Shown here: piece by piece, positions 31,721 through 40,452 of the stretch | Position numbering within the stretch: position 1 is the first letter of the stretch | How the letters are laid out: each line of letters starts with the position of its first letter | Assembly: GCA_964016885.1 (NCBI GenBank) | Contig: OZ024749.1 | Coordinates: 40,486,001 to 40,550,000, forward strand | DNA length: 64,000 nt | Origin: Eledone cirrhosa | Lineage: Eukaryota | Direction of reading: 5' to 3' | Position numbers and translations under genes: made by a program | Notes under the pieces: generated by a model | Told to the model about the DNA's origin: nothing | What the model saw: the letters and a program-made list of their open reading frames with translations, nothing else | Databases searched by the model: none

Positions 31721-31772
31721 TTGTCATGTTACAGGAGCCGTCTACTGAACAACAACCAGCTTACCGTCCACC

Positions 31773-31869
31773 ATGTCGTCTGCCAATATGGAAGGTTTAC
31801 TGCAGTTCACTCTCTCTACATCTCTAGTATTTCTCTTACTCAAGGCTAACGGTATTCTGAACCAGACAG
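31773..31869 (+). CDS. Predicted first coding exon (signal peptide/anchor) of the tandem kinase
   Basis: Acceptor ttacag|31735, Kozak ccaccATG, peptide [32 protein letters not shown], phase-1 donor CAG|GTGAGC. Phase-compatible with the acceptor at 37679. Confidence 0.6.
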
Positions 31870-32164
31870 GTGAGCACAGCGGTTACATTTTCTTGGTTTC
31901 ATTTTGTTTTCTCCTTTTTTCTCTTTCATTTTTTTCTTTTAAAACCAGTTTAAGCATCACACATACATACACCATATATATATATATATGTATGTATATA
32001 TATATATATATATGTATATGTATATATATATATGTATATATATATATATATATGTATATATATATATATATATATGTATATATATATATATATATATGTA
32101 TATATATATATATATATATGTATGTATGTATATATATATATATATATATATATATATATATATA

Positions 32165-34296
32165 TAAGAGGGTGTACACACACTACCAGCCCACGTCTGC
32201 AGCTCAATGGAAGTCTTGGAGCGACTACACCATCTGGCGCCCAACACCAGAAAGGACAACGGTTATGCCTTCAGTCTTGATGTGGTCTCCCTTTATACCT
32301 CCGTACCAGCATCCCCAGCTGTCGACCTGTTGACCGAACGAGTCCGAGCATCTAACCTACACTGCTTCGGACTCACACACACGGACATCCACCAACTCCT
32401 CTCCTTCGTTGTGGATAATGCACTCTTCAATTTCCTTGGCCACACGTACAAACAAATCTCTGGGCTACCTATGGGCTCTAGTCTGTCCGGCATACTTGCG
32501 ATCTCGTACATGGACCACCTGGAGCGCAAGGCACTCAATACCTGCCAACCCAACGCCGTCGCCTTCTACTCCAGATACGTTGATGATATCCTGATACTGA
32601 CTTCTTCCCGGGAGATGGCGAATGAAATTCACCAAATCTTCAACGATACTGACCAACACATCGATTTCACCATCGAACACCCGGAAGAAGACGGGTCACT
32701 CGCCCTCCTCGACTTCCGTATCAACATCTCGGAACATGGAGACATAAACACCACTTTCTACCGCAAAGCAGCGTGCAAGGACCTATTTGTGCATTATAAC
32801 TCAGCCCTCCCCAACAACGCTAAGAGAGGCTATGTCCTAAATGAACTGACACGGATCACTAACAGATGCAGCGACCCGATGGGTGGTCTCACCCATACCA
32901 CGCAATTCCGTAATCTACTCAAATCTAATGGTTATCCCAAGCGACTGATTAACGGAATTAGAGACCCCAGACCCAGTAGACCGACACCCACTAGAAAACT
33001 TAATATTAGCAGGTGCTTCTTTAAAATCCCCCACCTGAGTGAATGTACCACGAACGCCATCCGCAGGGCCATACGTACGGAGGGACTTGACATACATTTG
33101 GCCCACACAGGACCTTCGCTGCGAAGATGCCTCTCCAACAAACCCTACGAGGCAGATAGGACTTGTTCCCTCAGCAACTGCCCGATACGGGGGGCAGATT
33201 GCCTACGCACCTATGTCGTATATAAGATTCAATGCGATAAATGTAACAAGTTTTACATAGGTAGCACCATCCGACCCCTACATGTTCGTATCAAGGAACA
33301 TATCAACACCAACGCATCTTCCTTCCGTAAACATATCCTCAAATGCGGAAACCCACAGGGTAGACCCTTGGTCACAGTCCTAGCGACTGAACGCAGCATC
33401 GGATCCTTAAGGATAAAGGAAGCACTTGTTATTAAGAACCTCAGACCCCCACTTAACAACCGGGCCGAGAGAAATGAGCTGACATGGCTAATTTAACCAT
33501 AATGACCATTTACAGCCTACGGCCTGCTATCTTCACACACACGCACGTATATGCATACGCATACGCATACACACACACATCTATATTTATACACGCACAC
33601 ATGTTTTTACAACCTACCACCTTTCACACCCTTTGATTTCCAGCTTCTACAGCCCACTATCTTTCACACACAAACGCACTCACACATATACATACACAGT
33701 TACACACACACATGTATACCCATACGCTTACACACACACACTTCTATATTTATACACGCACACATATTTTACAACCTACCACCTTTCACACCCTTTGATT
33801 TCCAACTTCTACAGCCCACTACCTTTCACACACACACACACTCACACATATACACACTTACACCTATACACACACAGTTACACACACATATATATTTACA
33901 TACACATATCTTAAGGCTTTCACACGCTAACGCACCCTCTTGATTTAACCCATTTGGTCAGTAGCTTTTGCCACAGCCTATCACGCGCACGCGCATTCTT
34001 TCCCTCGTTTAAATTTTAAATATTTTTCTCCCCATAACGGCATTCCTGTCTTAACGACATCAACACTTTCTCCGCTTAGCCTGTTTTCCCCCCTTTTGGA
34101 ACTTTTCCCCCGTTGATGGGCGTGAGCCCGAAATATTGGGATTAAAATCTCTACTACGGTAACCCTTCTACCTTTGTTTTGTTTTCATCTTTGTCTCTCT
34201 CAACTTTCACTTTCACCTGTTTTTCCTATCTATATTTCACTTCCTACCTCGAGATTTCCCTTTGCATTGTTGTGGCTTTCTTAAATACGTATTTTT
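32165..34296 (+). mobile_element. Penelope-like retroelement, 5'-truncated, inserted in (TA)n
   Basis: RT + GIY-YIG ORF, a 3' UTR with an internal direct repeat (~33605 and ~33767), and a terminal module shared with 25008-25333 and 63790-64000. Confidence 0.95.
32207..33496 (+). CDS. Penelope reverse transcriptase + GIY-YIG endonuclease (N-terminally truncated, frame open from ~32177)
   Basis: Motifs [35 protein letters not shown], then [18 protein letters not shown]...RIKEAL..PPLN. No internal stops. Confidence 0.95.
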
Positions 34297-37199: not shown

Positions 37200-37290
37200 A
37201 ATGTAAAATGCCAGAGGATTTAAATGTTCAAAAGAGCGACTGTCAGTTTTTTGTTTCGTTAATATGACTGACCAGAAATGACAGCTTCTA
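37200..37290 (+). other. Candidate alternative 5' exon (UTR + ATG ACA GCT TCT A) of the tandem kinase
   Basis: Acceptor ttttcag|, donor cta|GTGAGT, and ATG at 37278 in frame with the 37679 exon. Upstream are AAAATGGCG (YY1-like) at ~37090 and a possible donor at 37111. Confidence 0.4.
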
Positions 37291-37678
37291 GTGAGTGTTA
37301 AAAGTAAAAATGTTCGGTGTTTTAAAGCTGTCAAAATTGTACCTGTTCGTTACTGTTCTAATATTAATGTTACTAAATTCTTTTGATACCAAGCCGCCCT
37401 GGTTCTATGACGAAAACCCGTTTGTCTTAAAATGTTTATATTTGAAATTAAATATTTCATTATAAGTTATGCTCCCAAACATCAACTTTAATATTGAGAA
37501 TATTATTAAATCCCTCAAAGGTTTTATCCTTTAAAAGTTTTATTAAAAAATCTTACGAATAGAGGCTTGTTCGAAAATTATATTTCAAATTCTGCACACA
37601 CACATCCTCTCCAATTTGATCCCTACTCTAAGATTTGCCGAGCCCTGTTCTAATAATTCCTCTTTTGTTCTATTTCAG

Positions 37679-39588
37679 CAGTCTTGGGAAGCAATGTGAT
37701 GTGTAATTCTACTAATACTTGCTGTCCAAAATGGAATGGTAAATGTTGCTGTGGGTTTAACTACCAAGTCCTAATGAAATCTTTACCGAAAAGTCGGGAT
37801 GGAAGTGAGAATGGAGATTGTACAAAAAGTCAGAAGAGCAACAAAACCAAGACAGGAAGTCGATTCTCTACACCCAGAAGTTACAGAGATTATGAAATCA
37901 AAGACATTTCAGATATATTCCTGCAATATAATTACAGCTACCAAAATATTCCGCCTAGCCTGGCACACATAGGGACGGAACTCCTTGACGCCGAATCTGT
38001 TCGTTATTTCCGTGATTACGATGACGAGGTTGTGTTCCTTGGTAAAGGTTCTTTTGGTGAGGTTTACCTAGCGGAAATGGCAGTGAGCAAACAAGTGGTA
38101 GCTGTGAAACTGTTCCTTGATTCTGATTACTTGGACATTATATCGGAAGTAATAATCACGCAGTATCTATCGAATACGGGCGTGATACCAAAAATCTTAG
38201 GTTTACTTCCAACTGGTCTTATGTCGAGCAACTTATCGTTAGTTCAAGAGTACATAAGTGGTATGACCCTTGAGGATCATCTAAACGAAGAGAACGAGAC
38301 TGCGTTAACGGCTGTGAATTGGTTAAACATATCCCTACAGTTGACAGCAGGTTTACAGAAGATACATCAACAATACGTCCTTCTTAACGACATCCATGAA
38401 GGAAATGTTCTTATAGAACAGCCATATCTACGAGTCGTCTACATCGACATGGGACATGCCACCTTCCGATCAGGTTATAAATATAAAAACTACAACGGAT
38501 CTTTGTACACTTACGAACATTTGGCCCCAGAGCTGCGAAAAAGCCAGCCAGGGACTCCTGCATCAGATGTTTATAGCCTGGGTTCTTTAATTAGTCGTAT
38601 CAGTAATATTAGCCACATTGAAGAGCTGCAGAAACTTGCTAACCAATGCTTACTAACAGATCCTTCTTCTCGCCCGACTTTGAGTAATCTAACAGTTTCG
38701 ATGAAAGAGTTATTCAGGAAAGAAAAACAGAAGTTAGAACGAAATAAAATCAAATTCCCGGCATATTTCACCAACACGAAGCAAAGAAACTATTCCCCTT
38801 TAATTCAATATAATGTGCCAATACTCGGTCCAAACGCCATCAGCGCCATTGAAAATGATTCCTCTCGAGATAGCGCCATTGTTAATATGTACGCATCGTT
38901 AGGAGAGACTAAATTACAAGTCGGTCATTTCATAAAATGCAATTGTCAAGTAATGATCCGTTCCTATGAGAATGGATCGTTCGTGAGAATACTCGAAGAA
39001 TCTCGAATTCTGTTACATTTAAAAGATACGGGGGCTGTGTTTCCATTCCACGGTCTGTTGTCTACTGGGAGCCTCTTGGACGAATTTGAAATAGTTCAGT
39101 CATATTTCGTAAAAATGGTGTCCGTGGCCAATATTCTCTACTATTATCCGCTCCGTCTTTCCGATGCAGAAATTTTAGTTTTTTTCATTCACGTTGCCAT
39201 ACATCTCCTCGAAATACACCGCAGGGAGGTCTTACTTAACTATTTAAACGAATATAACATTATGATTGACCCAGAAAACACGAAAAACCCCGTCTGGTTT
39301 AGCGACCTCTCGCGAGCCACATACAATGAGGCATACGTGTTTCCGGTTCATGAGACAGACATGAGCGACTTTATATTCCTAGCGCCGGAAGTGAGGGCCG
39401 GTTCCCCGACGTCTCCGGCCAGCGATATTTACAGTTTATGCTACGTCTATCAACAAGCGATTGACCGTCTTAACGGACGAACTCGTTTAAAACTACTGCA
39501 ACACTGTCTAGCTGACGACCCTGAAGTGCGGCCTTCTCTGCCAGAAATGATCATATATCTGCGGACGCTGGCTCATTCCCTTCAATAG
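37679..39588 (+). CDS. Tandem kinase-pseudokinase, large terminal exon
   Basis: Domain 1: LGKGSFGEVY, VAVK, LLNDIHEGN, DMG, LAPE, SDVYSLG, DPSSRP. Domain 2: no Gly loop, VMIR, LLNYLNEYN, DLS, LAPE, SDIYSL, DPEVRP. Acceptor tttcag|cag; AATAAA at 39622. Confidence 0.92.
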
Positions 39589-40452
39589 TAAACAAACTTC
39601 ATGTGAAGAAAACAAAGACAAAATAAACGAACTGATAAAAATTAAAATGAAGTAACTAATATGAGACTAAAAGCTAGTCACCATCGCCTTTCTATCTATC
39701 TCTTTATCTCTCTCTTTACATCAACCTATATATATATATATACACATACACACACACATATATATATATATACACATACACATATATATGTATATATGTA
39801 TGTGTGTATATGTATATATATATATATATATATGTATATATATACACATACACACACACACACATATATATATATATACACATACACATATATATGTATA
39901 TATGTATGTGTGTATATGTATATATATATATATATATATATATACACATACACACACATATATATATATACACATACACATATATATATGTATATATGTA
40001 TGTGTATTTTATATATATATATATATATATATATATATATATATATAAGTATTTATACGTACATACATATACGTATAAATACTTATATTTAGGTATCAGC
40101 CGTACTAAGAGTGAGAAAGGAAATTTCGTTTCATTCTTTTCTATATATATATATATATATATATGTGTGTGTCTGTCTGTCTGTACATACATACATACAT
40201 ACATACATACATACATACATACATACATATACATACATATATATATATATATATATATATATATATATATATATATATATATATATATATATATATATAT
40301 ATATATATATATATATTATTATTATTATTATTAATTGTTTCTACTTTTGGCACAAGGCCAGCAATTATCTCAGTGTATTACTGGTACTTTATTTTATCGA
40401 CGCCTTAAGGATGAAAGGCAAAGTTAACCTCGGCGGGTTTTGAACTCAGTCC

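Follow-up and report, generated by a model that had tools for sequence, protein, structure and literature searches.

A putative secretory-pathway kinase-pseudokinase family of molluscs, read from a locus of Eledone cirrhosa

Could a protein kinase and a pseudokinase joined in a single chain, as they are in the JAKs, work outside the cytosol? This question is raised by a two-exon gene located in a 64,000-nucleotide stretch of the Eledone cirrhosa genome (assembly GCA_964016885.1, contig OZ024749.1, positions 40,486,001 to 40,550,000, forward strand; hereafter the window), for which an original prediction made from the letters alone had proposed an undescribed extracellular or lumenal family of tandem kinases. 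Our analysis supports this proposal, since gastropod members share the domain order, the signal-like starts and the excess of N-X-S/T sequons found in the cephalopod protein, the location itself being predicted from sequence. Taking the whole chain of inference together, we narrowly favour a protein kinase of the secretory pathway that carries its pseudokinase partner in the same chain.

The gene and its two kinase domains

The gene consists of a short first coding exon and a second exon that are separated by a phase-1 intron (Table 1). Exon 1 provides 97 coding nucleotides from the ATG at 31773 to a GTGAG donor at 31870, and its untranslated part holds an in-frame TGA (31746-31748), 27 bases 5' of the ATG, which closes the frame upstream. 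The acceptor of exon 2 is a tandem CAG-CAG at 37676-37681 preceded by a pyrimidine tract, and both acceptors lead to a frame that stays open to 39588, with a product of 668 or 667 aa. The predicted donor and the in-frame join to an uninterrupted exon can therefore be read directly in the window with either acceptor; the small exon and its hydrophobic N-terminus also hold (16 uncharged residues in a row, with a best 12-residue hydropathy of 2.15), and only its supposedly perfect Kozak context has to be reduced to a good one (A at -3, T at +4). Seven open segments running from an ATG to a phase-1 GT(A/G)AG were found in the 37.6 kb upstream, and among them a 12-residue hydropathy of at least 2.15 was reached only by exon 1 (two ATGs) and by a (GT)n repeat artefact.

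The homologues and their N-termini, which the original prediction had singled out for comparison, agree with this structure: orthologues keep both the junction and the hydrophobic start. Indeed, the window product is 89% identical to the Octopus bimaculoides protein, the exon 1 product matches the N-terminus of P0001 at 24 of 31 residues, and P0001 (UniRef, 667 aa) and P0038 (RefSeq, 666 aa) from O. bimaculoides lie one residue apart, which is what the two acceptors predict, the database models of this species using both of them. In the cuttlefish-type proteins P0042, P0043 and P0003 and the squid-type protein P0004, a homologous hydrophobic N-terminus is continuous into the Cys-rich segment across the same junction, and both parts are carried by 84, 43, 10 and 5 Logan contigs, respectively (all <=4.9 kb), which we infer to be spliced cDNA. 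Note that the label 'cuttlefish-type' follows from near-identity to the named P0005, and that the label 'squid-type' is a guess. The best tblastn match of the P0042 N-terminus in the window is exon 1 itself. As another example, P0045 (6 Logan contigs) shows a different N-terminus from exactly the junction point onward, as intron read-through in an unspliced copy would give. A contig of run X1 (2931 bases) covers the intron end and the whole of exon 2 with five substitutions and no gaps, two of them in coding sequence and both synonymous; run X1 sequence passes straight through the acceptor, like DNA, and run X4, with no contig over exon 1 or the junction, is silent either way. The signal exon seems to be lacking from several database gene models. 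In the public models P0002, P0039, P0040 and P0005 (Argonauta, O. vulgaris, Acanthosepion pharaonis), this exon is absent or replaced, or the model is internally truncated, and best-hit names such as shkC and PRKCQ on public models do not reflect the family.

The joined protein opens with the predicted signal peptide, followed by the Cys-rich segment as it was originally described, whose six cysteines are all kept in the 6 cephalopod sequences that reach it (8 aligned), and by an extension for which a similar IP..L....LL.E..V stretch can be seen by eye ahead of the first kinase domain (domain 1) in gastropod members. Domain 1 presents GxGxxG, K176 (β3), E189 (αC), the catalytic loop L-N-D270-I-H272-x-x-N275, D289-M-G and APE, i.e., with the foreseen changes of HRD to LND, of the catalytic-loop Lys to His and of DFG to DMG all in place, and K176, E189, D270, N275 and D289 are invariant in 8/8 cephalopod sequences. 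Judged by these motifs, domain 1 is very probably catalytically active. The second domain (domain 2) has no Gly loop, R460 for the Lys, Y554 for the catalytic Asp (these three losses were also foreseen) and DLS for DFG, and is by the same yardstick a pseudokinase. The two domains are 27% identical to each other, and their identity to seven other cephalopod sequences amounts to 85-97% for domain 1 and 71-89% for domain 2. PF00069 (Pkinase) matches domain 1 with E 6e-26 and domain 2 with E 3e-05, below the cut-off.

The AlphaFold check proposed for both domains gave two complete kinase folds, with an N-terminal helix and the first 100 residues disordered, in a model of the orthologue from O. bimaculoides that drew on 51 sequences (mean predicted local distance difference test score, pLDDT, 81.4; predicted template modelling score, pTM, 0.65, a single-chain value that does not establish an interface between domains 1 and 2); it was used instead of a model built on only 7 close sequences (pLDDT 33). 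Together with the Pkinase match, this model places the protein in the protein kinase superfamily, with a eukaryotic protein kinase (ePK)-like fold. The top Foldseek matches are the two-kinase-domain structures EGFR-KDD, JAK and TYK2 (13-16% identity), JAK and TYK2 being among the first four, the nearest solved sequences are tyrosine kinase-like (TKL) and tyrosine kinases, and an ESM Atlas search returned generic kinase clusters only. A hydrophobic stretch at aa 527-545 was ruled out as a transmembrane segment because helix αE of domain 1 is its counterpart in the alignment, and the model, too, builds it into the kinase fold as a helix.

Signal-like starts, sequons and predicted location

We consider it highly likely that the protein is lumenal or secreted, because of the signal-like N-termini, the N-X-S/T excess within the domains and the conserved sequon at N217. 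By our own hydropathy rule, a signal-like start is present in 8/12 tandem members in which the domain is preceded by 30 residues or more, against 5/83 other kinases with the xND (LND) catalytic loop, two of these five being Lingula proteins; this count leaves out 13/25 tandem members and 31/114 others as too short N-terminally, and none of the group counts includes the 13 generic HRD kinases or four more cephalopod sequences. N-terminal hydropathy is kept at 1.9-2.3 in the octopus, cuttlefish and squid types while exon-1 identity to the cuttlefish and squid types is only 8/31 and 9/32, and hydrophobicity kept while identity falls is the usual pattern of signal peptides. In addition, the cuttlefish and squid types show the classic charge pattern of a signal peptide.

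The window protein has 13 sequons, in line with the dozen or so first reported, where 5.9 are expected (5000 shuffles, p=0.004), and enrichment was found in 9/9 cephalopod sequences tested (p 0.000-0.017) and in 0/5 single-domain relatives. Inside the domains, 119 sequons were observed in the tandem group against 71 expected (44 domains), and 109 against 66.5 when cephalopods were left out, compared with 121 against 140 in the other kinases (115 domains). None of the control motifs (reversed, D-, Q- and N-X-X-S/T) is enriched in the tandem group. The N217 sequon is shared by 16/21 family first domains, from both cephalopods and gastropods, and by 2/112 other LND kinase domains.

A mollusc family and its relation to known kinases

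When 1.84 billion representatives were searched with a profile, 44 proteins scored E <=1e-30, and most of the matches listed (the best 150) are single-domain kinases with an xND catalytic loop. The tandem group comprises 25 proteins (window protein counted once), assigned by a FastTree tree and sequence likeness. Among ten proteins looked up, seven are tandem members, one is unnamed and two are signal-bearing Lingula relatives; the named tandem members come from Lottia (four domains), Patella, Haliotis (two), Gigantopelta, Batillaria and Physella, and all are called 'uncharacterized' or 'hypothetical'. First domains keep the catalytic Asp, the Asn and DxG in 21/21 cases and the Lys in 18/18 complete ones, with His in place of the catalytic-loop Lys in 20/21, whereas second domains keep the catalytic Asp in 0/23. 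Orthologues are 70-89% identical across coleoids, and at least one tandem locus was found in the genome (3.0-Gb assembly).

Using 62 selected domain rows of 193, IQ-TREE recovered 13 second domains as one clade, with support 100/92 (LG+G4) and 99/90 (mixture model), and 12 first domains as another, the cephalopod and P0078 first domains being unresolved. Monophyly of the first domains is not rejected (p-AU 0.85). Indeed, three approximately unbiased (AU) tests (first and second domains, first domains, and both with Lingula) all gave p ~0.8 and a likelihood above that of the quick free search, so that they do not discriminate between these groupings. A single origin of the tandem layout is nevertheless likely, if not proven, from these sequences because of the second-domain clade and the shared first-domain characters.

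Some relatives depart from the two-domain layout. In P0076 (Lottia), a single signal peptide precedes two copies of the kinase-pseudokinase pair, and P0136 (a single first-type domain) and P0200 (a divergent single domain) are both signal-bearing. In Lingula anatina, P0077 (three intact-looking domains) and P0144 (one) are signal-bearing xND kinases in a clade of their own (99/94) and may represent a second secreted branch. A paralogue in the same genome as the window gene, L002 (1354-2217; G000:C2 about 101088000-101088900, +), is single-domain and apparently intronless; its xND loop is of the Lys type, it lacks a signal-like start, and it is 87% identical to O. bimaculoides P0051; L004 (1354-2292; G000:C3, +) is an apparently intronless kinase frame with HRD and DWG that matches the family weakly.

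The single-domain lophotrochozoan xND-loop kinases (P0051 from Octopus, P0053 from Haliotis, P0054 from Solemya, and L002) constitute the parent group. They share LxxTG, LVQEY, IHxxxxLxND and a short C-lobe with domain 1 (31-36% identity), and differ from the tandem family by their one domain, the kept catalytic-loop Lys, a mostly absent signal-like start and the lack of sequon excess. Since the mollusc family nests among these cytosolic-looking kinases, its entry into the secretory pathway appears independent.

The known kinases VLK/PKDCC and POMK, whose ePK fold is recognisable, and FAM69/DIA1 are single-domain, whereas the mollusc family has two domains. Kinship with VLK/PKDCC, POMK and FAM69 was judged by Pfam and solved-sequence matches: no PIP49_C/FAM69 Pfam match was found in 51 members, and the best 60 matches to solved sequences include neither a POMK nor a VLK chain. 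In the available passages of a review (PMC7948968), 13 secretory-pathway kinases are counted, with Fam20, Four-jointed, VLK, POMK, FAM69 and DIA1 named, and the mollusc tandem family is absent; VLK/PKDCC, POMK and FAM69/DIA1 are described there as having a kinase fold behind a signal peptide or anchor in the secretory pathway, as predicted here for the mollusc family. In the same passages, Fam20C is an active kinase that is secreted and has the pseudokinase Fam20A, likewise secreted, as its activating partner; this pairing resembles our proposal, and Fam20A is vertebrate-only. However, Fam20 proteins adopt an atypical fold and occur as separate chains, while the mollusc protein is one chain of Pkinase-type domains, and Fam20 is neither among the 10 Pfam families matched by 51 members (E 0.01) nor matched by the window domains at E 1.

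Kinase and pseudokinase in one chain, as here, are found in JAK/TYK2 and in plant tandem kinases (Rpg1, WTK, RWT4, Lr41). JAKs are cytosolic and have the pseudokinase first together with FERM/SH2, whereas the mollusc protein has the kinase first and the window protein gave no FERM or SH2 match. The plant tandem kinase proteins (TKPs) are intracellular immune receptors, and we know of no signal peptide or sequon excess in either JAKs or TKPs. No description of the tandem family was found in the open-access literature searched, accession searches included; in the parts available, the supplement of PMC10138644 and the main text of PMC4883820 gave no match, nor did the supplement (5 files) of PMC4094399 for the Lottia gene number. 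The homologues matched no characterised cytosolic or transposon-borne family, although such a match would have spoken against the original prediction. Nor did either of the other outcomes that would have refuted it turn up, the splice being judged from orthologues and the signal peptide from hydropathy. The tandem family is real, conserved and apparently undescribed.

Table 1. Features of the tandem kinase gene and of the surrounding window sequence (window positions)
Feature	Position	Strand	Remark
Exon 1 (first coding exon)	31735..31869	+	5' edge inferred from AG at 31733-31734
Exon 1, coding part	31773..31869	+	32 codons + 1 nt; predicted signal peptide
Intron 1	31870..37678 (..37681 with second acceptor)	+	phase-1 GT-AG; transposon remnants and simple repeats inside
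Penelope-like retroelement	32168-33493	+	in intron; 442-aa open frame
Mariner/Mos1 transposase fragment	35246-35653	-	in intron; helix-turn-helix (HTH)
High-copy short repeat	about 36186-36335		probably SINE-like
Exon 2, coding part	37679..39588 (alternative start 37682)	+	open throughout to TAG 39586-39588
Six-cysteine segment, aa 41-57	37702..37752	+	pLDDT <50
Extension before domain 1, aa 101-145	37882..38016	+	conserved; seen by eye in sequences
Kinase domain 1, aa 146-378	38017..38715	+	predicted active
Sequon N217	38230..38238	+	in domain 1
Kinase domain 2, aa 433-668	38878..39585	+	pseudokinase by motif loss
AATAAA	39622..39627	+	candidate poly(A) signal; ATTAAA also at 39641
Presumed mariner C-terminal fragment	42792-43055	+	no Pfam match
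C2H2 zinc-finger match	46124-46357	+	possibly end of LINE-type element

The window as a whole is repeat-rich DNA. The Penelope-like frame matches RVT_1 (E 1.8e-11) and GIY-YIG (E 2.3e-4), and its high contig depth suggests many copies; the Mariner/Mos1 fragment matches HTH_48 (E 3e-07). The short repeat, probably a short interspersed nuclear element (SINE)-like sequence, reaches a summed contig depth of >1 million in runs X1-X3. Downstream of the gene, we take one stretch to be a mariner C-terminal fragment from its resemblance, and the zinc-finger match (E 1.9e-06) is possibly the end of a long interspersed nuclear element (LINE).

Proposed mechanism, alternatives and meaning

We propose that the exon-1 hydrophobic stretch would target the chain to the endoplasmic reticulum and be cleaved near A25-G27 or kept as an anchor, so that the kinase domains would sit in the lumen, with the chain N-glycosylated and the six-cysteine segment disulfide-bonded. 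Domain 1 would then phosphorylate secreted substrates using lumenal ATP and a divalent metal, its substrate being probably a protein rather than a sugar or small molecule. Under the non-RD rule, kinases without the HRD Arg do not need activation-loop phosphorylation, and as domain 1 has Asn for this Arg, it should not need it either. Domain 2, kept under selection without the catalytic Asp, would act in cis on domain 1 by setting its activity, docking or recruiting substrate, as does JH2 in JAKs (in cis) and Fam20A on Fam20C (in trans), and by this analogy it may well be regulatory. The family would have originated from the lophotrochozoan cytosolic xND-loop group when the domain was duplicated and a signal exon acquired, an origin that probably predates the gastropod-cephalopod split. 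The broader view, i.e., an independently evolved secretory-pathway kinase family of coleoids and the main gastropod lineages with an in-chain pseudokinase, which would place a JAK-like module outside the cytosol beside a parallel secreted branch in Lingula, we regard as evenly poised.

Several observations weigh against the secretory tandem kinase. Regarding the gene, no junction read was found for this organism, for which no RNA run was listed, and no exon 1-exon 2 joint is among the joints listed for runs X1-X4 (one study). In addition, the first exon of the O. vulgaris model P0040 is another one that is not hydrophobic (the window holds no convincing match for it), and P0039, P0002 and P0041 begin at an internal Met. 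Regarding location, our hydropathy rule is not a trained predictor, 4/12 long-N-terminus members (P0078, P0085, P0091, P0193) have no signal-like start and 13/25 tandem members start too near the domain to judge. In the octopus protein, the n-region has a slightly acidic character and a Lys follows the hydrophobic stretch, so that a lumenal C-terminus is not favoured if the stretch stays uncleaved. The Asn of N217 possibly has a structural role, and since the counted sequences are related, the counts overstate their independence. Regarding the tree, no IQ-TREE tree unites all first domains in one clade (0-1% of bootstrap trees), mutual attraction of the second domains, which evolve fast, is conceivable, and the BLAST scores of both window domains are equally high to single-domain relatives and to gastropod tandem members.

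Among the alternatives, a lumenal enzyme comparable to POMK or Fam20B, with a sugar, lipid or small molecule as its substrate, is unlikely. Its catalytic loop D-x-H-x-x-N is one that we take to resemble ABC1/APH-type small-molecule kinases. Weak Pfam matches to ABC1, APH and Kdo were found in 11, 23 and 16 of 51 members, and two known secretory-pathway kinases act on glycans according to the available passages of PMC7948968. However, the ePK C-lobe is complete (APE, subdomain IX Asp, XI Arg), all 51 members match Pkinase, which ranks first among the families for the first member, and the solved sequences nearest to the protein are those of the TKL and tyrosine kinases. Moreover, there are active protein kinases with His at the catalytic-loop Lys position, haspin being an example.

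A cytosolic tandem kinase, whether tethered by an N-terminal anchor with its C-terminus in the cytosol or started mainly from an internal Met or another exon, would agree with the charges around the octopus hydrophobic stretch, with the models that lack the signal exon (P0040, P0039, P0002, P0041 and Haliotis P0085/P0224) and with a parent family that looks cytosolic. We judge it quite improbable in view of the specific N-X-S/T excess with its deeply conserved sequon, the six clustered invariant cysteines, the typical form of a signal peptide shown by cuttlefish, squid, Lottia, Patella and Physella members, and a hydrophobic run of 16-17 residues that is short for an anchor. More doubtful still is a secreted protein without catalysis, in which both domains serve as binding or scaffold modules in secretion or matrix: domain 1 is indeed off consensus at HRD, the catalytic-loop Lys and DFG, and the invariant cephalopod sequon N305 lies in its activation segment, but the K, D, N and DxG Asp are kept in all covering first domains while the Asp is lost in 23/23 second domains, and this asymmetry across gastropods and cephalopods suggests selection on catalysis. 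Finally, an artefact or mobile cargo (chance join, retrocopy, or virus- or transposon-borne kinase), to which both domains lying in one exon and the Penelope-like and mariner remnants could point, is highly improbable and already largely refuted by the coleoid orthologues, with a single tandem locus found in the genome (a lower bound), viral structure matches that are generic (12-23% identity) and transposon pieces confined to the intron.

Altogether, if the secretory tandem kinase is true, enzymes of extracellular phosphorylation arose more times than one would conclude from the catalogue of vertebrates and flies, through a separate recruitment in molluscs from a cytosolic group. The family, concealed so far under database names such as shkC and PRKCQ, would offer a model, within one chain, of how a pseudokinase exerts control in the lumen, and a candidate enzyme for the phosphorylation of mollusc secreted proteins, with mucus, egg coats and shell or radula matrix as putative targets.

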